From the NCBI GenBank assembly GCA_032718475.1, contig JAUCBJ010009048.1:129019-193018 (forward strand): a stretch of DNA of 64,000 nucleotides, written 5' to 3'. Below the pieces are notes generated by a model. The model had not been told where the DNA came from. It was given only the letters and a program-made list of their open reading frames with translations, and ran no database searches. Every line of letters begins with the position of its first letter. Within the stretch, counting starts at the first letter, position 1. Positions 3,909-63,926 of this stretch are shown in pieces. This DNA comes from Nemertoderma westbladi (lineage: Eukaryota; Animalia; Xenacoelomorpha). Position numbers and translations under genes: made by a program.

Positions 3909-4046
3909 TTTATATACTAAATCTGGGACATCAAATCCACTAGAACTTTCTAGAGTATTCCATGGCCTCACATTGGAGCAATAAGATATTCCATGCCCTA
4001 TGATTGGCCCAACTCATCGTTCCATGTGTTGTACGCACCTCATTGG
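3909..4046 (-). promoter_or_regulatory. Pol II promoter of the left element: 3 CCAAT boxes, heat-shock element, TATA
   Basis: Minus strand: CCAAT at 4042-4046, 4003-4007 and 3972-3976; GGAAT-ACTCT-AGAAA-GTTCT with a perfect CnnGAAnnTTCnnG at 3940-3953; TATATAAA at 3909-3916. Confidence 0.7.
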
Positions 4047-4094
4047 TTTGTCTATTTGTATCAAATGAAAATAAATTGCCCCAAAATGCAAATT

Positions 4095-4168
4095 TCCCGA
4101 CTGGGATTCGAACTCGTAACCTATATGTAATGCAACCAACGCCTTAACTATCTGACCACTACGCCACG
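4095..4168 (-). other. tRNA-derived Pol III A/B-box module inside the putative LTR; not a functional tRNA
   Basis: Minus strand TGGTCAGATAG (A-box-like), AGTTCGAATCC (B box), then a T4 run. No complete cloverleaf. Confidence 0.65.
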
Positions 4169-12041: not shown

Positions 12042-12833
12042 GGTCACAAACACACTTTGTTGGTCAATATCGCCCAGGAAGTGAGAAACAGTATAACCGA
12101 AACCGTCCAACATATTTCCTCGTTCACTGGCGAACTATCCGACGGCATCCGACGCATTAACGAATGCGTCACCGCCATCGAGGGGTCGGACCGGCTGGAC
12201 ACAGACTCCCGTACCGACAATCGTGTCGCCACGTCCGACCCCGACGTCGGCACTGCAGAGGCAGCGCGATGCCGCGTTCGACAGTATTTCCGCGAACTCC
12301 ATACAACGCTACAACGACAGGAAGATGCGGCCCTGTCGGTAGTGGACGCCTTCGTGCACGAACGACTCAGCGCAATCAGACAGCAGCAAGAGGACATGGC
12401 TATACTGATGAGCCGAATGTCTGCGGCGGGGCTGGACTGCGAGCGCCGACTAGACAGCGCGGACACCGAGTTTGTTTCCTATCGCTCCGACGTGCTCAAT
12501 CTACTAGCTACCGTCCGAACTCAACAATCACAGTACCTCGATCTGTCTCATCAACTACCCCTTGATCCCGCTGTCCCTGTTACCTTCACTAAGGACAACC
12601 GCGCACATATCGGTCCCAAAATAGAAATGCGAGTTGTGTTACTAGGCCTGGACAACTCTGGTAAGACGTCGATTCTGTTTCAATTAAAGCAGAATGAGTT
12701 TGTGCAGAGTATACCAACTATTGGGTTTAATGTGGAGACCGTGGAATATAAGAATCTTCTGTTTACGTTTTGGGATGTTGGCGGAGACCCTAAACTGAGA
12801 CCATTGTGGAAACATTACTACCTCAACACACAG
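12042..12833 (+). CDS. TRIM23: TRIM23 coding exon 2 (coiled coil and first half of the ARF domain)
   Basis: Acceptor TTATAG|GGT; GHKHTL...[31 protein letters not shown]...[33 protein letters not shown]; donor CAG|GTGAGG. Confidence 0.93.
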
Positions 12834-15800: not shown

Positions 15801-18800
15801 ACAGGTGAGGCATAAATAGTAAGTTCTGAACACACAGGTGAGGCATAAATAGTAAGTTCTGAACACACAGGTGAGGCATAAATAGTAAGTTCTGAACACA
15901 CAGGTGAGGCATAAATAGTAAGTTCTGAACACACAGGTGAGGCATAAATAGTAAGTTCTGAACACACAGGTGAGGCATAAATAGTAAGTTCTGAACACAC
16001 AGGTGAGGCATAAATAGTAAGTTCTGAACACACAGGTGAGGCATAAATAGTAAGTTCTGAACACACAGGTGAGGCATAAATAGTAAGTTCTGAACACACA
16101 GGTGAGGCATAAATAGTAAGTTCTGAACACACAGGTGAGGCATAAATAGTAAGTTCTGAACACACAGGTGAGGCATAAATAGTAAGTTCTGAACACACAG
16201 GTGAGGCATAAATAGTAAGTTCTGAACACACAGGTGAGGCATAAATAGTAAGTTCTGAACACACAGGTGAGGCATAAATAGTAAGTTCTGAACACACAGG
16301 TGAGGCATAAATAGTAAGTTCTGAACACACAGGTGAGGCATAAATAGTAAGTTCTGAACACACAGGTGAGGCATAAATAGTAAGTTCTGAACACACAGGT
16401 GAGGCATAAATAGTAAGTTCTGAACACACAGGTGAGGCATAAATAGTAAGTTCTGAACACACAGGTGAGGCATAAATAGTAAGTTCTGAACACACAGGTG
16501 AGGCATAAATAGTAAGTTCTGAACACACAGGTGAGGCATAAATAGTAAGTTCTGAACACACAGGTGAGGCATAAATAGTAAGTTCTGAACACACAGGTGA
16601 GGCATAAATAGTAAGTTCTGAACACACAGGTGAGGCATAAATAGTAAGTTCTGAACACACAGGTGAGGCATAAATAGTAAGTTCTGAACACACAGGTGAG
16701 GCATAAATAGTAAGTTCTGAACACACAGGTGAGGCATAAATAGTAAGTTCTGAACACACAGGTGAGGCATAAATAGTAAGTTCTGAACACACAGGTGAGG
16801 CATAAATAGTAAGTTCTGAACACACAGGTGAGGCATAAATAGTAAGTTCTGAACACACAGGTGAGGCATAAATAGTAAGTTCTGAACACACAGGTGAGGC
16901 ATAAATAGTAAGTTCTGAACACACAGGTGAGGCATAAATAGTAAGTTCTGAACACACAGGTGAGGCATAAATAGTAAGTTCTGAACACACAGGTGAGGCA
17001 TAAATAGTAAGTTCTGAACACACAGGTGAGGCATAAATAGTAAGTTCTGAACACACAGGTGAGGCATAAATAGTAAGTTCTGAACACACAGGTGAGGCAT
17101 AAATAGTAAGTTCTGAACACACAGGTGAGGCATAAATAGTAAGTTCTGAACACACAGGTGAGGCATAAATAGTAAGTTCTGAACACACAGGTGAGGCATA
17201 AATAGTAAGTTCTGAACACACAGGTGAGGCATAAATAGTAAGTTCTGAACACACAGGTGAGGCATAAATAGTAAGTTCTGAACACACAGGTGAGGCATAA
17301 ATAGTAAGTTCTGAACACACAGGTGAGGCATAAATAGTAAGTTCTGAACACACAGGTGAGGCATAAATAGTAAGTTCTGAACACACAGGTGAGGCATAAA
17401 TAGTAAGTTCTGAACACACAGGTGAGGCATAAATAGTAAGTTCTGAACACACAGGTGAGGCATAAATAGTAAGTTCTGAACACACAGGTGAGGCATAAAT
17501 AGTAAGTTCTGAACACACAGGTGAGGCATAAATAGTAAGTTCTGAACACACAGGTGAGGCATAAATAGTAAGTTCTGAACACACAGGTGAGGCATAAATA
17601 GTAAGTTCTGAACACACAGGTGAGGCATAAATAGTAAGTTCTGAACACACAGGTGAGGCATAAATAGTAAGTTCTGAACACACAGGTGAGGCATAAATAG
17701 TAAGTTCTGAACACACAGGTGAGGCATAAATAGTAAGTTCTGAACACACAGGTGAGGCATAAATAGTAAGTTCTGAACACACAGGTGAGGCATAAATAGT
17801 AAGTTCTGAACACACAGGTGAGGCATAAATAGTAAGTTCTGAACACACAGGTGAGGCATAAATAGTAAGTTCTGAACACACAGGTGAGGCATAAATAGTA
17901 AGTTCTGAACACACAGGTGAGGCATAAATAGTAAGTTCTGAACACACAGGTGAGGCATAAATAGTAAGTTCTGAACACACAGGTGAGGCATAAATAGTAA
18001 GTTCTGAACACACAGGTGAGGCATAAATAGTAAGTTCTGAACACACAGGTGAGGCATAAATAGTAAGTTCTGAACACACAGGTGAGGCATAAATAGTAAG
18101 TTCTGAACACACAGGTGAGGCATAAATAGTAAGTTCTGAACACACAGGTGAGGCATAAATAGTAAGTTCTGAACACACAGGTGAGGCATAAATAGTAAGT
18201 TCTGAACACACAGGTGAGGCATAAATAGTAAGTTCTGAACACACAGGTGAGGCATAAATAGTAAGTTCTGAACACACAGGTGAGGCATAAATAGTAAGTT
18301 CTGAACACACAGGTGAGGCATAAATAGTAAGTTCTGAACACACAGGTGAGGCATAAATAGTAAGTTCTGAACACACAGGTGAGGCATAAATAGTAAGTTC
18401 TGAACACACAGGTGAGGCATAAATAGTAAGTTCTGAACACACAGGTGAGGCATAAATAGTAAGTTCTGAACACACAGGTGAGGCATAAATAGTAAGTTCT
18501 GAACACACAGGTGAGGCATAAATAGTAAGTTCTGAACACACAGGTGAGGCATAAATAGTAAGTTCTGAACACACAGGTGAGGCATAAATAGTAAGTTCTG
18601 AACACACAGGTGAGGCATAAATAGTAAGTTCTGAACACACAGGTGAGGCATAAATAGTAAGTTCTGAACACACAGGTGAGGCATAAATAGTAAGTTCTGA
18701 ACACACAGGTGAGGCATAAATAGTAAGTTCTGAACACACAGGTGAGGCATAAATAGTAAGTTCTGAACACACAGGTGAGGCATAAATAGTAAGTTCTGAA

Positions 18801-20433
18801 CACACAGGTGAGGCATAAATAGTAAGTTCTGAACACACAGGTGAGGCATAAATAGTAAGTTCTGAACACACAGGTGAGGCATAAATAGTAAGTTCTGAAC
18901 ACACAGGTGAGGCATAAATAGTAAGTTCTGAACACACAGGTGAGGCATAAATAGTAAGTTCTGAACACACAGGTGAGGCATAAATAGTAAGTTCTGAACA
19001 CACAGGTGAGGCATAAATAGTAAGTTCTGAACACACAGGTGAGGCATAAATAGTAAGTTCTGAACACACAGGTGAGGCATAAATAGTAAGTTCTGAACAC
19101 ACAGGTGAGGCATAAATAGTAAGTTCTGAACACACAGGTGAGGCATAAATAGTAAGTTCTGAACACACAGGTGAGGCATAAATAGTAAGTTCTGAACACA
19201 CAGGTGAGGCATAAATAGTAAGTTCTGAACACACAGGTGAGGCATAAATAGTAAGTTCTGAACACACAGGTGAGGCATAAATAGTAAGTTCTGAACACAC
19301 AGGTGAGGCATAAATAGTAAGTTCTGAACACACAGGTGAGGCATAAATAGTAAGTTCTGAACACACAGGTGAGGCATAAATAGTAAGTTCTGAACACACA
19401 GGTGAGGCATAAATAGTAAGTTCTGAACACACAGGTGAGGCATAAATAGTAAGTTCTGAACACACAGGTGAGGCATAAATAGTAAGTTCTGAACACACAG
19501 GTGAGGCATAAATAGTAAGTTCTGAACACACAGGTGAGGCATAAATAGTAAGTTCTGAACACACAGGTGAGGCATAAATAGTAAGTTCTGAACACACAGG
19601 TGAGGCATAAATAGTAAGTTCTGAACACACAGGTGAGGCATAAATAGTAAGTTCTGAACACACAGGTGAGGCATAAATAGTAAGTTCTGAACACACAGGT
19701 GAGGCATAAATAGTAAGTTCTGAACACACAGGTGAGGCATAAATAGTAAGTTCTGAACACACAGGTGAGGCATAAATAGTAAGTTCTGAACACACAGGTG
19801 AGGCATAAATAGTAAGTTCTGAACACACAGGTGAGGCATAAATAGTAAGTTCTGAACACACAGGTGAGGCATAAATAGTAAGTTCTGAACACACAGGTGA
19901 GGCATAAATAGTAAGTTCTGAACACACAGGTGAGGCATAAATAGTAAGTTCTGAACACACAGGTGAGGCATAAATAGTAAGTTCTGAACACACAGGTGAG
20001 GCATAAATAGTAAGTTCTNNNNNNNNNNNNNNNNNNNNNNNNNNNNNNNNNNNNNNNNNNNNNNNNNNNNNNNNNNNNNNNNNNNNNNNNNNNNNNNNNN
20101 NNNNNNNNNNNNNNNNNNACACACAGGTGAGGCATAAATAGTAAGTTCTGAACACACAGGTGAGGCATAAATAGTAAGTTCTGAACACACAGGTGAGGCA
20201 TAAATAGTAAGTTCTGAACACACAGGTGAGGCATAAATAGTAAGTTCTGAACACACAGGTGAGGCATAAATAGTAAGTTCTGAACACACAGGTGAGGCAT
20301 AAATAGTAAGTTCTGAACACACAGGTGAGGCATAAATAGTAAGTTCTGAACACACAGGTGAGGCATAAATAGTAAGTTCTGAACACACAGGAGGTGAGGC
20401 ATAAATAGTAAGTTCTGAACACACAGGTGAGGC
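12825..20433. repeat. 33-bp minisatellite, about 230 near-identical copies, spanning an assembly gap
   Basis: Unit AACACACAGGTGAGGCATAAATAGTAAGTTCTG. Only two variants were seen (+G near 14650, +GAG near 20391). Confidence 0.98.
20019..20118. other. Assembly gap (100 N)
   Basis: Run of n inside the 33-bp array, so the true array length is unknown. Confidence 1.
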
Positions 20434-24473: not shown

Positions 24474-27400
24474 GATATGAGTAGCGCCCACCCCTAACCT
24501 TCGGGTAGCAGATAGGAGTAGCACCCACCCCTACCTTCGGGTAGCAGAAAGGAGTAGCGCCCACCCCTAACCTTCGGGTAGCAGATAGGAGTAGCACCCA
24601 CCCCTACCTTCGGGTAGCAGATAGGAGTAGCGCCCACCCCTACCTTCGGGTAGCAGATATGAGTAGCGCCCACCCCTACCCTAGGGTAGCAGATAGGAGT
24701 AGCGCCAACCCCTACCTTCGGGTAGCAGATATGGGTAGCGCCCACCCCTACCTTCGGGCAAATATGAGTAGCGCCCACCCCTACCCTAGGGTAGCAGATA
24801 TGAGTAGCGCCCACCCCTACCCTAGGGTAGCAGATAGGAGTAGCACCCACCCCTACTTTCGGGTAGCAAATAGGTGTAGCGCCCACCCCTACCTTCGGGT
24901 AGCAGATATGAGTAGCGCCCACCCCTACCATAGGGTAGCAGATAGGAGTAGCACCCACCCCTACCTTCGGGTAGCATATAGGAGTAGCGCCCACCCCTAC
25001 CTTCCGGTAGCAGAAATGAGTAGCGCCCACCCCTACCTTCCGGTAGCAGAAATGAGTAGCGCCCACCCCTACATCGGGTTTCGGATAAGAGTAGCGCCCA
25101 CCCCCACCCTAGGGTAGCAGATAGGAGTAGCGCCCAACCCTACCTTCGGGTAGCAGATAGGAGTAGCACCCACCCCTACCTTCGGGTAGCAGATAGGAGT
25201 AGCATCCACCCCTGCCTTCGGGTAGCAGATAGGAGTAGCGCCCACCCCTCCCTTCGGGTAGCAGATATGAGTAGCGCCCACCCCCACCCTAGGGTAGCAG
25301 ATAGGAGTAGCGCCCAACCCTACCTTCGGGTAGCAGATAGGCGTAGCACCCACCCCTACCTTCGGGTAGCAGATAGGAGTAGCATCCACCCCTACCTTCG
25401 GGTAGCAGATAGGAGTAGCGCCCACCCCTACCTTCGGGTAGCAGATATGAGTAGCGCCCACCCCTACCCTAGGGTAGCAGATAGGAGTAGCGCCCAATAG
25501 GAGTAGCGCCCAACCCTACCTTCGGGTAGCAGATAGGAGTAGCACCCACCCCTACCTTCGGGTAGCAGATAGGAGTAGCACCCACCCCTACCTTCGGGTA
25601 GCATATAGGAGTAGCGCCCACCCCTACCTTCCGGTAGCAGAAATGAGTAGCGCCCACCCCTACCTTCCGGTAGCAGAAATGAGTAGCGCCCACCCCTACC
25701 CTAGGGTAGCAGATATGAGTAGCGCCCACCCCTACATCGGGTTTCGGATAAGAGTAGCGCCCACCCCCACCCTAGGGTAGCAGATAGGAGTAGCGCCAAC
25801 CCCTACCTTCGGGTAGCAGATATGGGTAGCGCCCACCCCTACCTTCGGGCAAATATGAGTAGCGCCCACCCCTACCCTAGGGTAGCAGATATGAGTAGCG
25901 CCCACCCCTACCCTAGGGTAGCAGATATGAGTAGCGCCCACCCCTATCCTAGGGTAGCAGATATGAGTAGCGCCCACCCCTACCTTAGGGTAGCAGATAG
26001 GAGTAGCGCCCACCCTTACCTTCGGGTAGCAGATAGGAGTAGCGCCCACCCCTACCTTCGGGTAGCAGGTAGGAGTAGCGCCCACCCTTACCTTCAGGTA
26101 GCAGATAGGAGTAGCGCCCACCACTACCTTCGGGTAGCAGATATGAGTAGCGCCCACCTATACTCTAGGGTAGCAGATAGGAGTAGCGCCCACCCCTACC
26201 TTCGGGTAGCAGATATGAGTAGCGCCCACCCCTACCCTAGGGTAGCAACATAGGAGTAGCGCCCACCCCTCCCGTAGGGTAGCAGATAGGAGTAGCGCCC
26301 ACCTCTACCTTAGGGTAGCAGATAGGAGTAGCGCCCACCCCTACCTTCGGGTAGCTGATATGAGTAGCGCCCACCCCTACCCTAGGGTAGCAACATAGGA
26401 GTAGCGCCCACCCCTACCTTAGGGTAGCAGATAGGAGTAGCGTCCACCCCTACCCTAGGGTAGCAGATATGAGTAGCGCCCATCCCTACCTTAGGGTAGC
26501 AGATAGGAGTAGCGCCCACCCCTACCCTAGGGTAGCAGATATGAGTAGCGCCCACCCCTACCTTAGGGTTGCAGATAGGAGTAGCGCCCACCCCTACCTT
26601 CGGGTAGCAGATAGGAGTAGCGCCCACCCCTACCTTCGGGTAGCAGGTAGGAGTAGCGCCCACCCTTACCTTCAGGTAGCAGATAGGAGTAGCGCCCACC
26701 ACTACCTTCGGGTAGCAGATATGAGTAGCGCCCACCCCTACTCTAGGGTAGCAGATAGGAGTAGCGCCCACCCCTACCTTCGCGTAGCAGATATGAGTAG
26801 CGCCCACCCCTACCCTAGGGTAGCAACATAGGAGTAGCGCCCACCCCTACCGTAGGGTAGCAGATAGGAGTACGCCCACCCCTACCTTAGGGTAGCAGAT
26901 AGGAGCAGCGCCCACCCCAACCTTCGGGTAGCAGATATGAGTAGCGCCCACCCCTACCCTAGGGTAGCAACATAGGAGTAGCGCCCACCCCTACCTTAGG
27001 GTAACAGATAGGAGTAGCGCCCAACCCTACCCTAGGGTAGCAACATAGGAGTAGCGCCCACCCCTACCTTAGGGTAGCAGATAGGAGTAGCGCCCACCCC
27101 TACCCTAGGGTAGCAGATATGAGTAGCGCCCACCCCTACCCTAGGGTAGCAGATATGAGTAGCGCCCACCCCTACCTTAGGGTTGCAGATAGGAGTAGCG
27201 CCCACCCCTACCTTAGGGTAGCAGATAGGAGTAGCGCCCACCCCTACCCTAGGGTAGCTGATATGAGTAGCGCCCACCCCTACCCTAGGGTAGCAACATA
27301 GGAGTAGCGCCCACCCCTACCTTAGGGTAGCAGATAGGAGTAGCGCCCACCCCTACCCTAGGGTAGCAGATATGAGTAGCGCCCACCCCTACCTTAGGGT

Positions 27401-30400
27401 AGCAGATAGGAGTAGCGCCCACCCCTACCCTAGGGTAGCAGATATGAGTAGCGCCCACCCCTACATCGGGTTTCGGATAAGAGTAGCGCCCACCCCCACC
27501 CTAGGGTAGCAGATAGGAGTAGCGCCCAACCCTACCTTCGGGTAGCAGATAGGAGTAGCACCCACCCCTACCTTCGGCGGTAGCAGATAGGAGTAGCATC
27601 CACCCCTGCCTTCGGGTAGCAGATAGGAGTAGCGCCCACCCCTCCCTTCGGGTAGCAGATATGAGTAGCGCCCACCCCCACCCTAGGGTAGCAGATAGGA
27701 GTAGCGCCCAACCCTACCTTCGGGTAGCAGATAGGAGTAGCACCCACCCCTACCTTCGGGTAGCAGATAGGAGTAGCATCCACCCCTACCTTCGGGTAGC
27801 AGATAGGAGTAGCGCCCACCCCTACCTTCGTTTAGCAGATATGAGTAGCGCCCACCCCTACCCTAGGGTAGCAGATAGGAGTAGCGCCCAATAGGAGTAG
27901 CGCCCAACCCTACCTTCGGGTAGCAGATAGGAGTAGCACCCACCCCTACCTTCGGGTAGCAGATAGGAGTAGCACCCACCCCTACCTTCGGGTAGCATAT
28001 AGGAGTAGCGCCCACCCCTACCTTCCGGTAGCAGAAATGAGTAGCGCCCACCCCTACCTTCCGGTAGCAGAAATGAGTAGCGCCCACCCCTACCCTAGGG
28101 TAGCAGATATGAGTAGCGCCCACCCCTACATCGGGTTTCGGATAAGAGTAGCGCCCACCCCCACCCTAGGGTAGCAGATAGGAGTAGCGCCAACCCCTAC
28201 CTTCGGGTAGCAGATATGGGTAGCGCCCACCCCTACCTTCGGGCAAATATGAGTAGCGCCCACCCCTACCCTAGGGTAGCAGATATGAGTAGCGCCCACC
28301 CCTACCCTAGGGTAGCAGATATGAGTAGCGCCCACCCCTATCCTAGGGTAGCAGATATGAGTAGCGCCCACCCCTACCTTAGGGTAGCAGATAGGAGTAG
28401 CGCCCACCCTTACCTTCGGGTAGCAGATAGGAGTAGCGCCCACCCCTACCTTCGGGTAGCAGGTAGGAGTAGCGCCCACCCTTACCTTCAGGTAGCAGAT
28501 AGGAGTAGCGCCCACCACTACCTTCGGGTAGCAGATATGAGTAGCGCCCACCTATACTCTAGGGTAGCAGATAGGAGTAGCGCCCACCCCTACCTTCGGG
28601 TAGCAGATATGAGTAGCGCCCACCCCTACCCTAGGGTAGCAACATAGGAGTAGCGCCCACCCCTCCCGTAGGGTAGCAGATAGGAGTAGCGCCCACCCCT
28701 ACCTTAGGGTAGCAGATAGGAGTAGCGCCCACCCCTACCTTCGGGTAGCTGATATGAGTAGCGCCCACCCCTACCCTAGGGTAGCAACATAGGAGTAGCG
28801 CCCACCCCTACCTTAGGGTAGCAGATAGGAGTAGCGTCCACCCCTACCCTAGGGTAGCAGATATGAGTAGCGCCCATCCCTACCTTAGGGTAGCAGATAG
28901 GAGTAGCGCCCACCCCTACCCTAGGGTAGCAGATATGAGTAGCGCCCACCCCTACCTTAGGGTTGCAGATAGGAGTAGCGCCCACCCCTACCTTCGGGTA
29001 GCAGATAGGAGTAGCGCCCACCCCTACCTTCGGGTAGCAGGTAGGAGTAGCGCCCACCCTTACCTTCAGGTAGCAGATAGGAGTAGCGCCCACCACTACC
29101 TTCGGGTAGCAGATATGAGTAGCGCCCACCCCTACTCTAGGGTAGCAGATAGGAGTAGCGCCCACCCCTACCTTCGCGTAGCAGATATGAGTAGCGCCCA
29201 CCCCTACCCTAGGGTAGCAACATAGGAGTAGCGCCCACCCCTACCGTAGGGTAGCAGATAGGAGTACGCCCACCCCTACCTTAGGGTAGCAGATAGGAGC
29301 AGCGCCCACCCCAACCTTCGGGTAGCAGATATGAGTAGCGCCCACCCCTACCCTAGGGTAGCAACATAGGAGTAGCGCCCACCCCTACCTTAGGGTAACA
29401 GATAGGAGTAGCGCCCACCCCTACCCTAGGGTAGCAACATAGGAGTAGCGCCCACCCCTACCTTAGGGTAGCAGATAGGAGTAGCGCCCACCCCTACCCT
29501 AGGGTAGCAGATATGAGTAGCGCCCACCCCTACCCTAGGGTAGCAGATATGAGTAGCGCCCACCCCTACCTTATGGTTGCAGATAGGAGTAGCGCCCACC
29601 CCTACCTTAGGGTAGCAGATAGGAGTAGCGCCCACCCCTACCCTAGGGTAGCTGATATGAGTAGCGCCCACCCCTACCCTAGGGTAGCAACATAGGAGTA
29701 GCGCCCACCCCTACCTTAGGGTAGCAGATAGGAGTAGCGCCCACCCCTACCCTAGGGTAGCAGATATGAGTAGCGCCCACCCCTACCTTAGGGTAGCAGA
29801 TAGGAGTAGCGCCCACCCCTACCCTAGGGTAGCAGATATGAGTAGCGCCCACCCCTACCTTAGGGTTGCAGATAGGAGTAGCGCCCACCCCTACCTTCGG
29901 GTAGCAGATAGGAGTAGCGCCCACCCCTACCTTCGGGTAGCAGGTAGGAGTAGCGCCCACCCTTACCTTCAGGTAGCAGATAGGAGTAGCGCCCACCACT
30001 ACCTTCGGGTAGCAGATGTGAGTACCGCCCACCCCTATCCTAGGGTAGCAGATAGGAGTAGCGCCCACCCCTACCTTCGGCTGGCAGATATGGGTAGCGC
30101 CCACCCCTACCTTCGGGTAGCAGATAGGAGTAGCGCCCACCACTACCTTGGGGTAGCAGATATAAGTACCACCCACCCCTACCCTAGGGTAGCAGATAGG
30201 AGTAGCGCTAACCCCTACCTTCGGGTAGCAGATATGGGTAGCGCCCAGCCCTACCTTCGGGCAAATATGAGTAGCGCCCACCCCTACCCTAGGGTAGCAG
30301 ATATGAGTAGCGCCTACCCCTACCCTAGGGTAGCAGATAGGAGTAGCACCCACCCCTACTTTCGGGTAGCAGATAGGAGCAGCGCCCACCCCAACCTTCG

Positions 30401-33137
30401 GGTAGCAGATATGAGTAGCGCCCACCCCTACCCTAGGGTAGCAACATAGGAGTAGCGCCCACCCCTACCTTAGGGTAACAGATAGGAGTAGCGCCCACCC
30501 CTACCCTAGGGTAGCACATAGGAGTAGCGCCCACGCCTACCTTCGGGTAGCAGAAAGGAGTAGCTTCCACCCTTACCTTCGGGTAGCAGATAGGAGTAGC
30601 GCCCACCACTACCTTCGGGTAGCAGATGTGAGTACCGCCCACCCCTACCCTAGGGTAGCAGATAGGAGTAGCGCCAACCCCTACCTTCGGGTAGCCGATA
30701 TGGGTAGCGCCCACCCCTACCTTCGGGTAGCAGATAGGAGTAGCGCCCACCACTACCTTGGGGTAGCAGATATGAGTACCACCCACCCCTACCCTAGGGT
30801 AGCAGATAGGAGTAGCGCCCACCCCTACCTTCGGCTGGCAGATATGAGTAGCGCCTACCCCTACCCTAGGGTAGCAGATAGGAGTAGCACCCACCCCTAC
30901 TTTCGGGTAGCAAATAGGTGTAGCGCCCACCCCTACCTTCGGGTAGCAGATATGAGTAGCGCCCACCCCTACCATAGGGTAGCAGATAGGAGTAGCGCCC
31001 ATCCCTACCCTAGGGCAGCAGATATGAGTAGCACCCACCCCTACCTTCGGGTAGCATATAGGAGTAGCGCCCACCCCTACCTCCGGGTAGCAGATATGAG
31101 TAGCGCCCACCCCTACCCTAGGGTAGCAGATATGAGTAGCGCCCACCCCTACATCGGGTAGCGGATAAGAGTAGCGCCCACCCCTACCCTAGGGTAGCAG
31201 ATAGGAGTAGCGCACACCCCTACCCTAGGGTAGCAGATAGGAGTAGCACCCACCCCTACCTTCGGGTAGCAGATAGGAGTAGCACCCACCCCTACCTTCG
31301 GGTAGCAGATAGGAGTAGCGCCCACCCCTACCTTCGGGTAGCAGATATGAGTAGCGCCCACCCCTACCCTAGGGTAGCAGATAGGAGTAGCGCCCACCCC
31401 TACTCTAGGGTAGCAGATAGGAGTAGCGCCCACCCCTACCTTCGGGTGGCAGATATGAGTAGCGCCAACCCCTACCCTAGGGTAGCAACATAGGAGTAGC
31501 ACCCACCCATACCGTAGGGTAGCAGATAGGAGTAGCGCCCACCCCTACCTAAGGGTAGCAGATAGGAGTAGTGCCCACCCCTACCCTAGGGTAGCAGATA
31601 GGAGTAGCGCCCACCCCTACCTTCGGGTAGCAGATATGAGTAGCGCCCACCCCTACCCTAGGGTAGCAACATAGGAGTAGCGCTCATCCCTACCTTAGGG
31701 TAGCAGATATGAGTAGCGCCCACCCCTACCCTAGGCTATCAGATATGAGTAGCGCCCACCCCTACCTTCGGGTAGCAGATAGGAGTAGTGCCCACCCCTA
31801 CCCTAGGGTAGCAGATAGGAGTAGCGCCCACCCCTACCCTAGGGTAGCAACATAGGAGTAGCGCTCATCCCTACCTTAGGGTAGCAGATATGAGTAGCGC
31901 CCACCCCTACCCTAGGCTATCAGATATGAGTAGCGCCCACCCCTACCTTCGGGTAGCAGATAGGAGTAGCGCCCACCCCTACCCTAGGGTAGCAACATAG
32001 GAGTAGCGCCCACCCCTACCCTAGGGTAGCAACATAGGAGTAGCGCCCACCCCTACCTTAGGGTAGCAGATAGGAGTAGCGCCCACCCCTACCCTAGGGT
32101 AGCAGATATGAGTAGCGCCCACCCCTACCTTAGGGTAGCAGATAGGAGTAGCGCCCACCCCTACCTTCGGGTAGCAGATATGAGTAGCGCCCACCCCTAC
32201 CTTCGGGTAGCAGATAGGAGTAGCGCCCACCCCTACCCTAGGGTAGCAGATATGAGTAGCGCCCACCCCTACCTTAGGGTAGCAGATAGGAGTAGCGCCC
32301 ACCCCTACCTTCGGGTAGCAGATAGGAGTAGCGCCCACCACTACCTTCGGGTAGCAGATAGGAGTAGCGCCCACCCCTACCCTAGGGTAGCAACATAGGA
32401 GTAGCGCCCACCCCTACCCTAGGGTAGCAACATAGGAGTAGCGCCCACCCCTACCTTAGGGTAGCAGATAGGAGTAGCGCCCACCCCTACCCTAGGGTAG
32501 CAGATATGAGTAGCGCCCACCCCTACCTTAGGGTAGCAGATAGGAGTAGCGCCCACCCCTACCTTCGGGTAGCAGATAGGAGTAGCACCCACCCCTACCT
32601 TCGGGTAGCAGATAGGAGTAGCGCCCACCCCTATATTCGTGTAGCAGATAGGAGTAGCGCCCACCCCTACCTTCGGGTAGCAGATAGGAGTAGCGCCCAC
32701 CCCTACCTTCGGGTAGCAGATAGGAGTAGCGCCCACCCCTACCCTAGGGTAGCAGATAGGAGTAGCGCCCACCCCTACCCTAGGGTAGCAGATAGGAGTA
32801 GCGCCCACCCCTACCTTCGGGTAGCAGATAGGAGTAGCGCCCACCCCTACCCTAGGGTAGCAGATAGGAGTAGCGCCCACCCCTACCTTCGGGTAGCAGA
32901 TAGGAGTAGCGCCCACCCCTACCTTCGGGTAGCAGATAGGAGTAGCGCCCACCCCTACCCTAGGGTAGCAGATAGGAGTAGCGCCCACCCCTACCTTCGG
33001 GTAGCAGATAGGAGTAGCGCCCACCCCTACCCTAGGGTAGCAGATAGGAGTAGCGCCCACCCCTACCCTAGGGTAGCAACATAGGAGTAGCACCCACCCC
33101 TACCTTCGGGTAGCAGATATGAGTAGCGCCCACTCCT
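24474..33137. repeat. 36-bp hairpin-containing minisatellite, about 240 variant copies, with ~2.39-kb higher-order duplication
   Basis: Unit GTAGCAGATA(G/T)GAGTAGCGCCCACCCCTACC(TTCG/CTAG/TTAG)G. ORF-track twins are offset by 2394 bp (25732/28126, 26382/28776, 27032/29426). Confidence 0.97.
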
Positions 33138-54649: not shown

Positions 54650-56181
54650 CATTAGACAACTGTTCAATATGTAATACAAAACTCACAACTATATATTAAA
54701 TATATATTAATTACAATTAGCACTTCAGTCAATGGATGAAGACCAATCCACCGATTCAATATACCAGAATATAATAACAGCCCAAAAGGAATCAGCTAAG
54801 AGGCATATTCCCCAGAATCCCAAAAGAAAACAGTATGCGCCATGGCAAAACTCTGAGGTTACTTGTAAGAGAGAAGATCTTAAGATAGCCTACAAGCCTT
54901 AAAGTTAAAACCGAACAACCAACAACCGAAAACATTAACAAGGTTGAGAAAGCTAAGGACGATCTTAAATTGGCCTACAACATCAGCCAGGAAAAGTACA
55001 TTCAGGATACTACTACTAGGATCGGCATGCTGCATTGCAGCTGCATTTTTAAGAATGCTGTGCCGGCTTATCGACAAAGTTGCACCGCCACAACTCCGTA
55101 TCACCCATGACATTTGCTAGATCATCCGCATCTTCAAGGCCAGTGTCCTTTAAGATGCGTCTCAAGAAAGTCATGGGCTGTCCGCCATGTTTATTCACTC
55201 CATGAGGCTGCCAAAGTACAAGATTATGCACTGGCTGGTCCTCACGGCGAAAGCAATGTCCTGCAAAGCGGAGGCGATTTTGTTCTAGTGTCAAGCTTGG
55301 GGGAACCAATGAGAAACCTCCAATGTTATACAAACATACAGGATAAAATTGAAGCAATTACAACTGCTCACAGACAGCAACAATCAAGACTTACCTTGCA
55401 AACTGTAAATGAGGTATCTGGTCGGAAAAGTTGTGCAAAGGGGCGCCTCAAAGCCGATAGTCCTGAAGAACGTGTTGGACTGTGGAAAAATCACTTCAGC
55501 AACTTGCTTGGGCAGCCACCAAACATCGAGGTCAGCCCTACAAGGAAAATATATGACAAGACACTACCTATAGAAACTAAAATTAAAAGCATGTCCAATA
55601 ATAAAGCGAGTCGATTAGATGAAATCCGAGCGGAGGTATGGAAATCAGGAGTGCTAAACAGACCATTATTGAATGTTTGCAACCGGATGTTAAAAGGGGA
55701 AAAGCCACCACCAATTTGGACTAAAGGTCAACTAAAGCCTATCCCCAAGAAAGGAGACCTCGGTATACCAACAAACTATCGTTTAAATTGGAAAGAAGTC
55801 GAAATGATGCCGTTCGTGGAGAATCCATAATTATAACTACCAACAAACTATCGTGGGATCTGTCTGCTTGTGGTAGCTGCCAAAATATACATTAAAATGA
55901 TTCTATATAGGATTAGGCCTTACATAGAGAAACTACTGCGTAAGAGCCAAAACGGATTTCGACTAAGTAGATCAACAATAGCTCAGATACTTGCACTACG
56001 GAGACTGATTGAAGGAATTAAGTCAAAGAATCTCCCCGCAGTCATGACTTTTGTGGACTTCAAGAAGGCATTCGACTCCGTCCATAGAGGCAAAATGCTT
56101 AAAATCCTAAGAGCTTATGGAATACCAGAAGTAATTGTTGCTGGCATTGGATTGTTATATTGTGACACAGAAGCGCAGGTA
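54650..56181 (+). mobile_element. RTE-like LINE fragment (linker and RT N-terminal half), truncated at the Tc1-like element
   Basis: WKNHFSNLLG, NNKASRLDEIRAEVWK, PIPKKGDL..TNYRGI, LRKSQNGFR, FVDFKKAFDSVHR, AYGIP. Confidence 0.88.
55010..55333 (-). mobile_element. 5'-truncated RTE-like insertion nested antisense in the older LINE
   Basis: Flanked by ACATTCAGGATA / ACATACAGGATA (12-bp TSD, 1 mismatch), with a (TAG)n tail. The host frame KYIQD resumes as IQDKIEAI. Confidence 0.75.
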
Positions 56182-58271
56182 CAGTCCCAATCCCAATAAA
56201 CATTAACTTGGTCGTTTTGGCGGCCAAAATGACCAAAATCACCAAAAAAATGTAGTGTATTCCTATGGGCTACTTGGTCGTTTTGGCGAAGCGATTTAAC
56301 TCGAATCAGCTCAATCCAGACAGTCTGTCTCCTTGGCCATCCATTTGGTGGATCTGACTAAATGTCGGCTCGCTTTCATTTTTATTATTGACAGATTGTT
56401 AACTTACCCGGCGCTGAGCCTTGCAGTACTGGAGTCTGCCCACTGAGGCATTGATAGAGTACAAAGTCTTATAAAAGGAGTTAAATGGGGCTTCGTTAAA
56501 GGTGGAGTATGTATAATAATCTGAACGCCCCGAAATTAATTTATGGACGTTCCAAAATTAATTTATGGACGTCCCGAAATTAATCTATCGACCAATCAGA
56601 ATCGTAATGAAATAACTAATTAATGGACGTCCATAAATTAATTTCGGGATGTTAATTTCGGAAATTAATTTCAATAATATTTTTTTTTATAATAAAATTT
56701 TTTTTTAATATTTTTTTTACAATGTTATAATTCGCGGGCACTGCGGGGTGAGTACAAAACAAAGACCCAATTATAAAGACCTGCATAATCTTGTTACATG
56801 TGTTAACTTTCGTTAATTGTTTTGAATCCCCCGTCACGCCTCTGTAACTTGCTCCTTTACTAACCTGCTCCTTTAAATAGCAATGGCACCTAACGCTCAT
56901 GTGGGACCTGTACAAAACAAAGAGGTAAAGTCGCGTACGTCCCAAAGACCGTTAGGTTCCAAAGAGCTTTAGGTCCCATTGCCAGAGAGCGTGAGGTCAC
57001 ATTGCCATTTAAAGGAGCAGGTTAGTAAAGAAGCAGGTTACAGAGGCGTTGTTGGGGAACCAAAACAATAAACGAAAGTTAACACATGTGTTTTGTATTT
57101 GTACAGGTCTTTATTATTTGGGTCGTTGGTCTTTGTTTTGTAGTCACCCGACACTGCGGTGTTGCGTGGGGGCCACCAATCCACCCACCCACACTCAACT
57201 CCCAACTTCCTGGACACTAGGATACTGAGTGAAAGCGTCTGAAACTACTACAGGAACTCCATGACAGACTATGGGCTAGCGATTAGGGACTGGCGCCCTT
57301 GAACATGTAAACTGTAGGGGCCTAGTACCTACTTTACACCTACCTTAAAGTGACCTGTGGGACCAGCCCATTATTAGTGAGGTCGGCATTTCTCTTTATC
57401 CTGCCGCTCTCTTTGTATTACAATAGCATACAGCTAACCAATGGCAATGGTCTCCTCCCAGTGCGGGAAAGACAAGCTGGCTACCATTGGAATGAATAGG
57501 GGAAGGATAATAGGGTGTGTTCGTGTTCCCATCCTAATGTCTGTCGTCTTGGCTCAGCTAAGCTTAAACAGAGCCACAGCCTTACAATAGAGCTTTACCT
57601 AAATACACTTCCAGTGAGCCAAGCAGTAGTGGCGGGTTAGCTCCAAAATGCCCATGTAGGATTTCTTAGTAAAAGGACCATCAATAATAGTCAACCCCAT
57701 CTGCTTCAATTTGAAGAAAATAATTAGATAATAATACTCATAATTAAAACTATTACATAATTATTATAACTCTAGTAAACAAAACAATATATCATTCGGG
57801 GGATGGAATATATAGGTCATCTAATTAATTGTTTAAAGATTAGCAAACAATACAGTGTAATTGAATTGATCAAATCCATAAATAAAACGTGGATACAAAA
57901 TAAAAATCGGGATGCAAAATATAAATTTCTGAGCTAAGAAAGGGAAATTGGATACTGTACAACTTGTCTGGATACAAGCGGTCCGTTTACCTTACAAAAT
58001 GAAAAATAAACGTGCGAAATATAAAACTGTACGGAACTGTCCGGGGGGGGGGGGGGGGGGGGGGTTGGGGAGGGAATGTCCGGAAATCGAAGCCTTTTTT
58101 ATCTGCCAACATCCTGGGCTTTACTTACACTCAGCCTCTATTCACTGGCTGTGATTGACAAGCCAACTTGCCTCAGAAGTTCCTTTCATGAATGCCGCAA
58201 TTTATATTTGGCCATTTTGGTCGTTTTGGCCGCCAAAATGACCAAGTTAATGTTTATTGGGATTGGGACTG
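56182..58271. mobile_element. Non-autonomous Tc1/mariner/pogo-like element, 2090 bp
   Basis: ~57-bp TIRs starting CAGTCCCAATCCCAATAAACATTAACTTGGTC; TA on both sides; no transposase ORF. Confidence 0.85.
56746..57149. mobile_element. Fold-back Mutator-like MITE nested in the Tc1-like element
   Basis: ~155-bp imperfect inverted arms; 9-bp TSD GGCACTGCG / GACACTGCG. Confidence 0.75.
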
Positions 58272-59829
58272 TAGTTGGATTAACATGTGTCCTGCACGGG
58301 TTAGTGTAGCTGATGAGCCAAATCCCGGCGAAACACATATGCAAAAATGTAACCAATGTGATAATTTTACTTACAGTATTTAAACAGGGTTGCGCTTTGT
58401 GTCCCTGCTTAAATAAAACGATGACTACTTACGGTTGAACAGATAGGAACATGTTGTTTCTCTGTTTCCAAATAATTTTACTTGCTTGATATTGGTCTGT
58501 CAAAAACATAATTCGTTCAACTCAAAATTATATTTAAGAGACCGGATCATGCTGAACATGGTTGTATAAAATGCCTTCCTATTATTTTATTTTTATTATA
58601 ATTAGCAACCATGCACTAGACAAATTATCTCATATAGTGTTGCTAAGGAAATGATTGCTTATTTGATCTGGAATGCAATACTATTTTGTTTATTATGTAT
58701 GTGTGTGTGTTTAGCTGGGTTTTGGTGTAGTTAGTTGGATTAACATGTGTCCTGCACGGGTTAGTGTAGCTGATGAGCCAAATCCCGGCGAAACACATAT
58801 GCAAAAATGTAACCAATGTGATAATTTTACTTACAGTATTTAAACAGGGTTGCGCTTTGTGTCCCTGCTTAAATAAAACGATGACTACTTACGGTTGAAC
58901 AGATAGGAACATGTTGTTTCTCTGTTTCCAAATAATTTTACTTGCTTGATATTGGTCTGTCAAAAACATAATTCGTTCAACTCAAAATTATATTTAAGAG
59001 ACCGGATCATGCTGAACATGGTTGTATAAAATGCCTTCCTATTATTTTATTTTTATTATAATTAGCAACCATGCACTAGACAAATTATCTCATATAGTGT
59101 TGCTAAGGAAATGATTGCTTATTTGATCTGGAATGCAATACTATTTTGTTTATTATGTATGTGTGTGTGTTTAGCTGGGTTTTGGTGTAGTTAGTTGGAT
59201 TAACATGTGTCCTGCACGGGTTAGTGTAGCTGATGAGCCAAATCCCGGCGAAACACATATGCAAAAATGTAACCAATGTGATAATTTTACTTACAGTATT
59301 TAAACAGGGTTGCGCTTTGTGTCCCTGCTTAAATAAAACGATGACTACTTACGGTTGAACAGATAGGAACATGTTGTTTCTCTGTTTCCAAATAATTTTA
59401 CTTGCTTGATATTGGTCTGTCAAAAACATAATTCGTTCAACTCAAAATTATATTTAAGAGACCGGATCATGCTGAACATGGTTGTATAAAATGCCTTCCT
59501 ATTATTTTATTTTTATTATAATTAGCAACCATGCACTAGACAAATTATCTCATATAGTGTTGCTAAGGAAATGATTGCTTATTTGATCTGGAATGCAATA
59601 CTATTTTGTTTATTATGTATGTGTGTGTGTTTAGCTGGGTTTTGGTGTAGTTAGTTGGATTAACATGTGTCCTGCACGGGTTAGTGTAGCTGATGAGCCA
59701 AATCCCGGCGAAACACATATGCAAAAATGTAACCAATGTGATAATTTTACTTACAGTATTTAAACAGGGTTGCGCTTTGTGTCCCTGCTTAAATAAAACG
59801 ATGACTACTTACGGTTGAACAGATAGGAA
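58272..59829. repeat. 460-bp tandem repeat, about 3.4 apparently identical copies
   Basis: GTTGGATTAACATGTGTCC occurs at 58274, 58734, 59194 and 59654. Confidence 0.95.
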
Positions 59830-59954
59830 TATAGAATTATATTCCCTAAATGCCGTGGATTTTCAAAATTTTATTTTATTCGAATTAACTTTGTAAAGAT
59901 TGCTTTGAGTTCTCATTAGTATTGGTTCTATCTATTGTGCATCTATCGGTCAAG

Positions 59955-60042
59955 TGGTTCAGTAGCTCAGTTGGTAGAGCGTTGGAAATTATATGTGTAG
60001 TAGGTATCGAGTTCGAATCCTAGTAAGTGCGAATTATTTTTT
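59955..60042 (+). other. tRNA-derived Pol III A/B-box module inside the putative LTR
   Basis: TAGCTCAGTTGG (59963-59974), AGTTCGAATCC (60010-60020), T6 at 60037-60042; stems are degenerate. Confidence 0.7.
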
Positions 60043-60099
60043 GTGCAGAATTTCAACTCATTTAAATTAACCGCTACAAATTAATTGCATTTGTCTGTA

Positions 60100-60247
60100 C
60101 CAATAAGGCTGTAGTTATTTGATTGTAACCAATGTCGTGCAAGTTATATATTAGCTGGACCAATAAGCTATCTTTAAAACCTTGTTAGAACCCATAGAAC
60201 AATCGAGAATTTTCTCGATTGATTGCAGCACAAATTTAGTATATAAA
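60100..60247 (+). promoter_or_regulatory. Pol II promoter of the right element: 3 CCAAT boxes, heat-shock element, TATA
   Basis: CCAAT at 60100, 60129 and 60160; AGAAC-AATCG-AGAAT-TTTCT with a perfect CnnGAAnnTTCnnG at 60204-60217; TATATAAA at 60240-60247. Confidence 0.7.
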
Positions 60248-62556
60248 GGTGCGATTCGTTCATTAGTTATCTCAATCTTATATCCCAATCTTTCTCAGAT
60301 TACCTTATCAATATTCTGTCGTGCTTAGTTTATTCTCAGATTACATTGTATTATAATTGTGTCTTCTGTAATAAAGTCAGAATATTCTCTCAGCTTTTCT
60401 GTTTTACTATGAATTCACTACGGTGAACAAACTCAGGGACAGGATGGCCGGCTAGAGATCGGGCCGCAGCAATGAACGGGAACATCACGGGAATGTAGAC
60501 GAGAGACAACCCGCAATACCATTTTAGAGTTATTCGCCCATCGCCTGAAAGGTTAGACAGCGTTCGATCCTTGCTACCTAAGTATAAGACCAAAAGATCA
60601 AGAGGTAGACGTAGTGACACGCTGCAAGCCTAAAATTACATCATAGGGACTGTACTGTCTTGATTCAGGAAAACCCACAGTAGACCTTCACATTCCTACG
60701 GGGGAGGGAGAGAGAGCAGATACTAGTACGCAGATAGGACGTAGGCACACCGGTACAAGGCATACACATTGGTTAGGGTGCAGCAAACTGTACGCTTAAC
60801 TCTTGCTAAGTACAGGTGTGTGTGCGACTATTTGCAGTACGACGGTGTCTATTACATCAGAACTTGTAGGCTAGGGGGGTTGCTGTGTTTTCACCTGAAT
60901 TGGGATTGTACCGTTCAGGCGGTAGGGCAGTTTACGCTAGGCGCAAATAAATTGAGGCTATCAGGGATATACTAACATCTACCGTGTCCCCGCCAACGCC
61001 CTAATAGGAAGTTACCCGGACTACCTGGGTGACTAAAATTCTAGATAGGAGCCAGGATAGCTATTAGTACCCGTACGCCTACAGTAGTAAACTAACACAT
61101 CTCTTCTTAGTATCAGGGACCTGGTACCTAAAATTGCCGAATTCTGGGCGTAGTATTAACCTTATGCCTGAATTTGAGTCCTGGAAATACGCAAGAGGGG
61201 AAGGAACCTTATCATTCGTGAGTATTGGACCTACAAGTTATAAAATTAGAATATTCGTAAAATGCACACCGTACCCAGTAATTATATATGTGAAGGAGCA
61301 AAACTGTTTTGACCGTTCAGAATTAACACACGCGCGTTAGAAATTATTTACACCTCGAAATATATAAAATTAACTTTGTCCGTACTGTGCTTTGCCCGCT
61401 AGTTAGACATCTCCAAATATCTGCTCTGTACCTAGCTAGCGTCCCTTTGCCCAACCATATAAATCACACCGCGGCAAAGTATACGAGCCCCTTAGTCCGT
61501 CAGTGAGTCAGCCTGATTTTAGGATTCGCTGCGCGGGATTTGTTTTATCGAAGTTTGTCTGCTCGTAGACTGTTTTCTGCCTCACCGGTTATAAGAGATC
61601 GATACTGCAATATATTCGCTTACTTAGGGTTTACTGTTTTGGTGAGAAGGTCGGATTTATGATTTGATTTACAAACTTTACAGTAGGATATTGCAGGTAT
61701 TGTTACCGTCTCTTCCGATAGTAGGAATAGGCGTATCTCTTCCAATTAGTAGGAATGTGTTTTACTGAACTACGGTTCGGTAGGACTAAAGTTATTTGAA
61801 AATTTTGTATTTTGAGGTAAAAATTTGTATTTGATTAGCTAAGTGCTAATTTTTTGAAATAAAATTTGATTTGAACCGCGTGTAAAATATTTTTGGAATT
61901 GAATACCGGTGTTTAAAAGGGTTTAAATACCATATTGTACCGGTACAAAATTTTCGTAAAGTAAAACCTAACTCTTTTGTTTTTCAGGATTCAGAACTCA
62001 TTTCTAGACTGTAACGGGAGCAAGACCGTGTTTAGCAAGTTTGGGAGATAGATAACTCAACAACTTTGGTTGGGAAAATCGCGTTTCGTCCGCAACGTTA
62101 AAAACGGAAAGGTTCACGTCCGGTTTGTATCTGGGAATCTGTTTTTCTGGAGAATTATTGGAGTGGGTGAGTTCGAAAAGTTGCATAAATAAGTTAGGCA
62201 TTACCGTATTAGTTAAAATTATTGTGGGTTCCACTGTCTCAAGTATTTATGCATTCCGTATGATTTCTTTGTTCATTGCTGAATTAGTCCGTATTATTGT
62301 ATTTAATTTACCTTTTGATAACGCATATCGTTATCCGATTTATTTGTTATAAAATTGGCCGCTAGGCTAATTTTATTATATACTTATTCCGTGACATTTA
62401 TTTGCTGTAAAATTGGCCGTTTAGGCTAATTTTATCCATCTGCTATAAAATCGGCCGGTAGGCTAATTTTATATGACTGTAATTAGTACCGTTTAGATAT
62501 AAATACGGTAAACTCGATACTTTGACACTCACTTTACTTGACTTACAACTACCGAA

Positions 62557-63926
62557 ATGAGTGACAAACAAGACTATACGAAGAACACACAAACCGACTA
62601 TGACTCATGTGACGCGGATAAGTCAGCAGCGGGAGAACCACAGGGGAAGACTCGCGAGCCTACCGAACCTACACCGTGTGCGTCACCAGTACACCCAACG
62701 GGAGTACCGGATGCCGTAGTACGAGGCGACGGCAGGACCGAGGACTTTCTAACTGTTCCGCAACCTAGATACAGGGAAACGGAAATGGTAAGTTCAGCAG
62801 GAAGTACAGAAAGTGTGGTTAGAAGCGTCGGAGGTTACATGGCGCATATTACCAGGAGTATTGGAGAAGGCCAACGCATATTAGACGGGTTGACCGCTCC
62901 GATGTCTCGATTCGAGTTCTACACCCTCCAGGTTAGAGTACAGAGTAAAGTATATAAGTCCGTAGATAATCTAGTTGGCCTACAAGATCTAGCTAGACAG
63001 AGACAGGACATGGATACTCAACTTAGAATCCTCGAGAAACTAATGATCACTAGAGAGAAACTGATTCAGTTTAAGTCGACGATTAGACAGATACAACAGG
63101 AACAAGCGGACCAGTTGTTAGGTGAGTCAGTTTCGGACGAATTATTACAACCCGAGGAAGAACAGGAACTGTACCGACTGGATGGACAATTGAAACACCT
63201 GACGGACCACTTACGTATGTGCGGCGAAGACGTCGGCGATTGGGAAACCGTGCCGGAATATACGAGGGAAACTTCACCCGTACGAATCGAATCGGCACCG
63301 GGAATACTGGACCAGTCGTCTGGTGAGTATTCGTAGCGAAATCTGCGAGGGAAGTATAGGCTACGTCAGAAGTTGCTCGACAACAGCAAGAATTCCACCG
63401 ACAACGACAAGAAATGGAAGAACAAGCTCAACTTCTAGTGATGCAGGCAGCAGTAGAGGAAGAGAAGCTACGCGTTGCGAATATAGCAAGAATCTCTCAT
63501 CTACAGGAACAAGCTGAATTAGAAGCAGCTGAAGTAGAAAGGTTAGAAATAGACATTGCCCGACAAGCGGCAGCGGCAGCGGCCGAGGTAGAGCGACGAG
63601 CGGCAGCGGCCGAATTAGAGCGACAAAACACAGCGGCCGAGTTGGAGCGACAAGCGGCAGCGGCCGAGTTGGAGCGACAAACGGCAGCGGCAGAATTACA
63701 ACGAGAAAGGTTAGTTTCGGAGGCGCGGGCCGAAATGAAAACACGGCAAATAAAGGCTCAATCCGCTATACGACAAGCGGAGTTTGAGGCGCAACGACAA
63801 CAAACGGAACAACGAGAGAAGACAGCTAAACTTCATTTCGAACTCGAGAAGAAGGCGAGAGAATTAGCGAACGCCGAGGAAGACCTGGATCAACAAGGCC
63901 CGCGATCGATCGATGAGATCTCGTGA
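62557..63926 (+). pseudogene. Gag-like coiled-coil ORF with frameshifts near 63320 and 63360
   Basis: ORFs 62557-63336, 63323 (VSIRSE) and 63414-63926 align in order with the single open frame of the left copy. Confidence 0.75.

Follow-up and report, generated by a model that had tools for sequence, protein, structure and literature searches.

The window, by which we mean the whole 64-kb stretch of DNA that was analysed, is entered from its edges by two copies of a repetitive element, copy A on the forward strand (59830 to beyond 64000) and copy B on the reverse strand (4303 to beyond 1). Both sit in repeats, copy B in another high-copy repeat and copy A in a 460-bp tandem array (58272-59829, 3.4 identical copies) that ends where copy A begins; the words CTGATGA ... 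GAAAC, which we take to be a hammerhead core, occur once per unit of this array, and a search of Rfam gave no match for it. The rest of the window holds a RING/B-box/ARF gene (TRIM23) and Ig-domain exons (Pfam), and the TRIM23 piece is 51-57% identical alike to lancelet, mollusc, cnidarian, echinoderm and vertebrate proteins, with one partial match at 64% among the 120 matches listed, so that the source is probably an invertebrate to which none of these is closely related. Inside the TRIM23 gene lies a 33-bp satellite (12825-20433, about 230 copies) whose unit spans an exon end and a splice donor. Another satellite, of 36 bp (24474-33137), has about 240 copies and higher-order repeats, and mobile DNA of other kinds is represented by an ISXO2-like (IS1595/Merlin type) DDE transposase frame (6319-7191, reverse strand; Pfam PF12762, E 3.4e-11) and by a fragmented LINE reverse transcriptase (55111-56199, forward strand; RVT_1, E 3.3e-13).

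Copies A and B have in common one order of promoter motifs, namely an A box, a B box, a T-run, three CCAAT boxes, a heat-shock element (HSE) and a TATA box (Table 1). All of these were found where the original prediction had put them, and the spacings that it gave, 29-39 bp between CCAAT boxes and 22-23 bp from HSE to TATA, agree with those measured in the two copies. The distance from the third CCAAT box to the HSE is unequal, 31 nt in copy A vs 10 nt in copy B, and copy A has a second, looser A-box-like match from 59955. For the HSE, which had been described as a four-unit array with a perfect core, the core and 11 of the 12 consensus bases are indeed present, in the form of a perfect GAA/TTC pair, one perfect unit and one unit with a single mismatch, but the strict pattern of three consecutive, perfect, alternating units has no match in copy A or copy B. 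The three CCAAT boxes of copy A are presumably NF-Y sites, and from the spacing a Pol II start site may be placed near 60265-60270. Further downstream, copy B offers only GATAAA (3786-3781) as a polyadenylation candidate, and a conserved block resembles what we take to be a YY1 site.

Table 1. Features of copies A and B, in coordinates of the window.
Feature	Position	Strand	Remark
Copy A, likely 5' LTR	59830-60440	+	3' end about 60400-60440, or as far as about 61715
Copy A, tRNA-like type-2 Pol III module	59951-60042	+	predicted unit of about 86 nt
Copy A, A box	59963-59974	+	motif match
Copy A, B box	60011-60019	+	motif match
Copy A, T6 terminator	60037-60042	+	T-run
Copy A, three sense CCAAT boxes	60100, 60129, 60160 (region 60100-60164)	+	spacing 29 and 31
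Copy A, HSE	60196-60217	+	four units 60196-60215; 14-bp core 60204-60217; 11/12 consensus bases
Copy A, TATA block	60234-60249	+	16/16 identical to copy B
Copy A, TATA	60240-60247	+	22 nt after HSE core
Copy A, candidate LTR polyadenylation signal AATAAA	60370-60375	+
Copy A, conserved YY1-site-like block	60441-60455	+	13/15 identical with copy B
Copy A, leader intron (GT-AG, 1436 nt)	60552-61987	+	spliced joint 60549-61986, cut +2
Copy A, second leader exon	61988-62166	+	ends at second donor, GT at 62167
Copy A, ORF1	62557-63926	+	stop at 63336; coiled-coil part in another frame, 63360-63926
Copy B, likely 5' LTR	3700-4303	-	begins TG at 4303; inserted in another high-copy repeat
Copy B, tRNA-like module	4083-4170	-	predicted unit of about 92 nt
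Copy B, A box	4166-4156	-	motif match
Copy B, B box	4113-4105	-	motif match
Copy B, T4 run	4086-4083	-	only four Ts, vs T6 in copy A
Copy B, three CCAAT boxes	4046, 4007, 3976 (CCAAT-HSE-TATA region 3907-4046)	-	spacing 39 and 31
Copy B, HSE	3961-3942	-	14-bp core 3953-3940
Copy B, TATA block	3922-3907	-	alignment with copy A
Copy B, TATA	3916-3909	-	23 nt after HSE core
Copy B, predicted leader intron (about 1.7 kb)	1841-3552	-	donor and acceptor homologous to those of copy A
Copy B, second donor	1692	-	homologous to copy A
Copy B, ORF1	1-1316	-	open for 438 codons to window edge

Over the 47,600 non-satellite bases of the window, the HSE core was found twice vs 0.59 expected and the 10-nt B-box word twice vs 0.07 expected, in each case at these two loci, and four-unit arrays with 11 of 12 HSE bases likewise number two in the non-satellite window, those of copies A and B. 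The chance of an HSE core within 11 registers is 1.4e-4, and that of three CCAAT boxes in 150 nt is 6e-4. Taken alone, CCAAT is at chance frequency in the window (113 vs 103 expected), and so is a loose B-box pattern (20 vs 20).

The stretch or part of it is present in contigs of 6 of the 11 public runs listed, none of them catalogued as RNA or as coming from heat-treated material; four (X1, X3, X4 and X5) were examined. Copy A is hit by 7446 contigs of X1 and 3000 of X3, and 921 bases of copy B by 1415 and 634, with summed depths near 1e5 in both runs and single rare contigs at 11-47; these are summed contig depths that give no copy number and were taken to mean very many copies only, and uncovered parts of runs were not counted as evidence. 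The two copies, which are 65% identical in DNA over the second exon and ORF1, thus stand for two high-copy families, as expected of the mobile element that had been proposed. In family A the depth is level over the module and the CCAAT-HSE part (186k, 200k and 190k in X1; 109k, 114k and 121k in X3), no joint that removes the module occurs among the joints listed, and a 311-nt contig found in both X1 and X3 spans module, CCAAT boxes and HSE (59915-60226; 82% alike, 57 differences, 1 gap). Therefore the possibility, raised with the original prediction, that independent SINE insertions account for the module fails for family A, in which the tRNA-like module is an integral part; there is no further copy of it elsewhere in the 64-kb window. 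Family B is less tidy, and the same possibility is less clearly settled there, since the module is wholly or partly unaligned in two low-depth contigs (X4, 4045-4192; X3, 4123-4189). In X1, the depth of this family is about 10-49k over the CCAAT-HSE-TATA segment vs 68-181k over 4069-4285, and because the depth over the segment counts copies at least 80% alike, most B-like copies must be less than 80% alike there, and their HSE is not covered.

Evidence of selection on the motifs came from the alignment of the two copies and from variants within family B, and in both the motifs were kept above the spacers. The B-box block is identical at 21 of 24 positions and the A-box region at 25 of 43, while the spacer between A box and B box keeps 2 of 10 bases, and the eight spacer segments between motifs score like shuffled sequence or close to it (z -1.6 to 2.0; z values of the blocks are inflated, as block borders were set after the alignment was viewed), in line with the strong spacer divergence that had been noted. 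As a yardstick for near-neutral change we used the fourfold-degenerate sites of ORF1, of which 36 of 68 (53%) are identical; at that rate the run of 13 identical bases in the B-box block has P ~3e-4. Within the HSE, 11 of 12 consensus bases are kept vs 3 of 8 spacer (n) bases, which bears out the earlier remark that the consensus is retained while its spacers differ. Among the best-supported 40 of 143 family B variants, 26 fall in 3900-4303 and none of these touches the 51 bases specified by the motifs (3.3 expected, P 0.027); three lie inside the four HSE units, each of them at an n position. Moreover, the first CCAAT is kept next to different adjoining sequence in two loose ends of diverged B-like contigs. 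We are confident that the motifs are under selection.

One run bears on whether the promoter is used. The leader-intron joint of copy A was found in X4 only among the four runs, in one contig with a depth of 249.8; X4 is labelled 'DNA?' and is read here as RNA, the alternative being spliced DNA copies. On either reading, the region downstream of the TATA box has undergone transcription and splicing, which speaks for Pol II. In the alignment, copy B keeps both donors and the acceptor of copy A, and loose ends of X4 at both donors (60551 and 62166) join sequence outside the stretch, which suggests further spliced messages from downstream reading frames. A 701-nt contig of X4 (60877-61577) has 91 differences, and 14 of those listed are A>G changes lying between 61288 and 61405; this density is likely due to ADAR hyper-editing of element RNA.

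Whether this promoter responds to heat can be considered in the light of a flatworm, Macrostomum lignano, in which mutation of the HSE abolishes the heat response of an LTR (Ustyantsev et al. 2025, PMC12801592), and of the HSE-bearing LTR element ONSEN (PMC3907296). In these LTR promoters, as in the likely LTR promoter of copies A and B, the HSE lies upstream of the TATA box, and the Macrostomum elements and copies A and B are all from invertebrates. On the other hand, the HSEs of Macrostomum are defined as three perfect alternating units and their induction has been demonstrated, with four HSE families rising over 250-fold on heat and two unresponsive (PMC12801592), whereas copies A and B carry a predicted HSE of two adjacent perfect units plus imperfect ones. 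From the motifs we consider the promoter here to be heat-inducible on balance. The competing case, in which the Pol II promoter is real and not driven by heat, the HSE-like array serving, through HSF or some other factor, for basal expression or for expression in the germline or stem cells, seems to us the less probable of the two and still worth serious attention. It would fit the missing third perfect unit, the spliced product in X4, a run of undocumented treatment, and the fact that 2 of the 6 HSE families of Macrostomum are not induced (PMC12801592). However, the retention of 11 of 12 consensus bases with the n positions free, at 22-23 nt from the TATA box in both copies, is harder to reconcile with it, and one Macrostomum family with a single HSE is strongly induced (PMC12801592).

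The Pol III module in front of this promoter does not form a tRNA. ARAGORN and Rfam gave 0 matches to it (only chance-level ones in Rfam), the D-stem pairs in copy A while the T-stem is unpaired though the B box is exact, and a tRNA gene was rejected on the lack of a cloverleaf. No conserved RNA fold was detected in the module, which folds no better than shuffles (z -0.89, -1.64, -0.07 and -0.80). The T6 of copy A follows 17 nt after the B box and the T4 of copy B 18 nt after it, and with a T-run within 20 nt of the B box Pol III is predicted to stop after 85-92 nt, unable to make the template of the element. DNA boxes that are conserved without a conserved RNA speak for a protein-binding role, most simply of TFIIIC, and on these grounds we lean slightly towards a DNA-level role of the module through TFIIIC, rather than a small RNA or a relic. 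Such a site beside a Pol II promoter can be modelled on yeast TFIIIC sites, which block Pol II read-through (PMC4228148), and on mouse B2 SINEs, which act as markers of chromatin boundaries in connection with CTCF (PMC8136502), with the difference that those are host loci or free SINEs and not a fixed part of an LTR. The observed/expected CpG ratio in flanking DNA, 0.88-1.0, makes it more likely that a barrier here would face histone-based silencing than DNA methylation. Since the 3' LTR would carry the module as well, Pol II would have to cross it there, which is hard to square with a strict roadblock.

The suggestion that the module is a source of small RNA was weakened by the lack of a conserved fold. 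In its strongest form it would make the module a small-RNA gene, with a Pol III RNA of 85-92 nt made from U3 and acting in trans as a decoy or regulator. A precedent exists in the miRNA cassettes that foamy viruses carry in U3 (Kincaid et al. 2014, PMC3993851), which, like the module, are A/B-box Pol III units with a terminator, situated upstream of the promoter from which Pol II transcribes a coding retroelement. Both copies have a full set of A box, B box and T-run in sense orientation, and the D-stem still pairs in copy A. But the foamy cassettes fold to stem-loops that give miRNAs, and the module, tRNA-shaped in origin, has no common fold, does not fold beyond shuffles, keeps only 2 of 10 bases between A box and B box and has no match in Rfam, so that we regard a small-RNA gene as unlikely.

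As to the element itself, TATA box, AATAAA and splice donor follow in LTR order (general layout in PMC3601003), and the AATAAA at 60370 with the donor 180 nt later accords with an LTR some 600 nt long. At 61715 the depth changes about twofold and one loose end of X4 occurs, which would agree with a 1.9-kb LTR or with deletion derivatives. Loose ends of other sequence lie ahead of 59830 (three contigs in X4 and one in X5), and an empty site at 4303 is shown by host-repeat contigs that run through it (X3 and X5). In X5, the contig preceding 59830 and another preceding 4303 finish in the same 17 letters, purine-rich at the end, and differ further out; this 17-mer is absent from both flanks in the window, and the two empty-site flanks have no sequence in common with the 17-mer junction beyond one base. 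A common purine-ended 17-mer ahead of both starts is most simply the polypurine-tract region before a 3' LTR, which would make the region U3, and this evidence consists of two contigs, one per family, both from a single run of low depth whose label gives another organism. In the three X4 contigs that precede 59830 the flank consensus is different. We therefore regard the region as the likely U3 of an LTR retrotransposon, a class assigned from the termini, as both copies leave the window and no pol, target-site duplication or 3' LTR end was seen in the part inside it. Troyka elements, with CG...CG ends (PMC12440569), were considered and do not fit the termini of copies A and B.

ORF1, the first reading frame downstream, is 57% identical in protein between the copies over its N-terminal part. 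That of copy A is likely broken, given the stop at 63336 and the continuation in another frame. In copy B a disordered N-terminus is followed by a predicted four-helix bundle (residues 84-221) and a long Ala/Glu/Arg coiled-coil-like stretch, and the structure model is a helical bundle with pLDDT 65.5. Searches for relatives of ORF1 returned no matches for its three pieces in Pfam (11 window proteins scanned), 0 of 1042 and 0 of 814 candidates in a word search, none with HMMER on 1.84 billion representatives, no usable match in the ESM Atlas in 3 of 3 cases, and none at E<=0.001 for the model with Foldseek in PDB or viral libraries; a pattern search of contigs from metagenomes and viruses gave 130 and 19 matches, none of which was confirmed. 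ORF1 may thus be called gag-like by its position only, and being without a known relative it does not separate Gypsy from BEL/Pao.

The same features leave some room for a tyrosine-recombinase retroelement with split direct repeats, of the PAT/Ngaro type, or another element with head-to-tail junctions, whose other end the 17-mer would then be. Elements of the PAT/Ngaro type have a split-direct-repeat structure, and DIRS-1 carries a heat-shock promoter. Neither a primer-binding site nor a CA end was found, no CA-TGG site being common to both copies, copy A starts TA and ORF1 is unassignable, all of which would suit such an element. Against this, copy B starts TG, the 17-mer has a purine-rich end, and the two empty-site flanks share at most one base with the 17-mer junction; we rate this reading as improbable.

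tRNA-derived boxes in LTRs of animals are known from the Helenus (TRIMp3) elements, short non-coding elements of 311-1263 bp from six animal phyla that are thought to use Pol III for their template RNA (Kojima 2024, PMC10886601). If the region is an LTR, copies A and B resemble Helenus and Cassandra in having A and B boxes inside an LTR, here of an animal, that are conserved without a working tRNA fold, and differ from Helenus in being longer than 4 kb, coding and spliced, with a full Pol II promoter and a module that ends in a T-run. They were accordingly rejected as members of Helenus (TRIMp3), which are short and non-coding, on a length above 4 kb and an ORF1 of at least 438 codons in copy B. 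In the same study, such LTRs are proposed to have arisen through insertion of a SINE (PMC10886601), and with its decayed cloverleaf the module could be seen as what is left of a SINE that entered U3 long ago and has been carried along passively, without function; this is already disfavoured and very improbable, since the B-box block keeps 21 of 24 bases next to spacers at shuffle level and fourfold sites at 53%, has its 13 identical bases in a row, and the boxes are free of family B variants among the best-supported 40 of 143. A Cassandra/Helenus-type Pol III promoter for template RNA, perhaps for short non-autonomous derivatives, would match the kind of A/B-box relic in the LTR and the depth steps along copy A, but with T6 17 nt (A) and T4 18 nt (B) after the B box, in an element that is above 4 kb, protein-coding and spliced, it is the least credible explanation.

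Taking these results together, our preferred reading, to which we give a probability of roughly 45%, is that the region is the U3 of a high-copy coding LTR retrotransposon in which a TFIIIC-binding barrier module stands upstream of a CCAAT-HSE-TATA Pol II promoter boosted by heat shock. The promoter would fire at a basal level near 60265-60270 through NF-Y and TBP, and HSF bound to the four-unit HSE would raise this firing under stress. A tRNA-headed SINE or tRNA fragment may have been captured once in an ancestral U3, and each cycle since would have reproduced it in both LTRs, with selection keeping the DNA boxes and not the RNA. Occupancy by TFIIIC could then block read-through transcription and the spread of silent chromatin from the flank, any Pol III transcript of 85-92 nt being a by-product, and protection from flanking chromatin would pay for copies that have landed in repeats.

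The promoter would thus likely work in the manner of Macrostomum and ONSEN, with a Pol III module like that of Helenus or foamy viruses in front. Each module is known separately, and their combination in one protein-coding element is apparently undescribed: our literature search, for which subscription journals and Repbase Reports were mostly beyond reach, returned among the matches listed no report of a coding LTR element with both a Pol III and a heat-shock module, and the accessible parts of the Macrostomum report do not mention a Pol III module (PMC12801592). The novelty claimed in the original prediction therefore holds for the combination only, as HSE-bearing LTRs, tRNA boxes in animal LTRs and Pol III cassettes in U3 were all known. 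According to the accessible parts of Kojima 2024, 'not a few' LTRs in Repbase have tRNA-like parts and only TRIMs under 1000 bp were analysed (PMC10886601), and since the analysis was of short TRIMs only, Repbase may already contain long examples that have gone undescribed. Kojima also expected autonomous partners to use Pol II, long autonomous LTR elements being without the Pol III boxes of TRIMp3 (PMC10886601), and the present element bears on this expectation and on the origin of Helenus.

If the B box works as proposed, the element would have made an anti-silencing device from a housekeeping factor of its host, one hard for the host to disarm, by the same logic as the capture of an HSE, with both stacked in one LTR; with very many copies, TFIIIC sites and HSEs would be scattered over the genome. 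More tentatively, we hypothesise that the large, spliced LTR retroelements of animals include an unclassified lineage in which a hard-wired TFIIIC barrier plus heat-shock promoter forms a portable unit, silencing-resistant and stress-inducible at each insertion, and that such elements could also be the autonomous parents of Helenus-type TRIMs, by deletion and not by SINE insertion into a TRIM, a proposal that we ourselves rate as doubtful. Should the module be only a Pol III relic under weak selection, the element would be a modest addition to two recent papers.

Two stretches of the leader deserve mention. A block within the intron (61453-61591 on the forward strand vs 2516-2386 on the reverse) is 72% identical between the copies and contains two 19-nt identical runs, one of them with a TATA-like word; a predicted long-range pairing within it has 23 pairs, of which one is compensatory in the two sequences. 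This block is a candidate for an internal promoter or a packaging or dimerisation signal that splicing could remove. Just before ORF1 of copy A, a 35-nt near-palindromic unit occurs three times (62342-62472), and one unit aligns in copy B.
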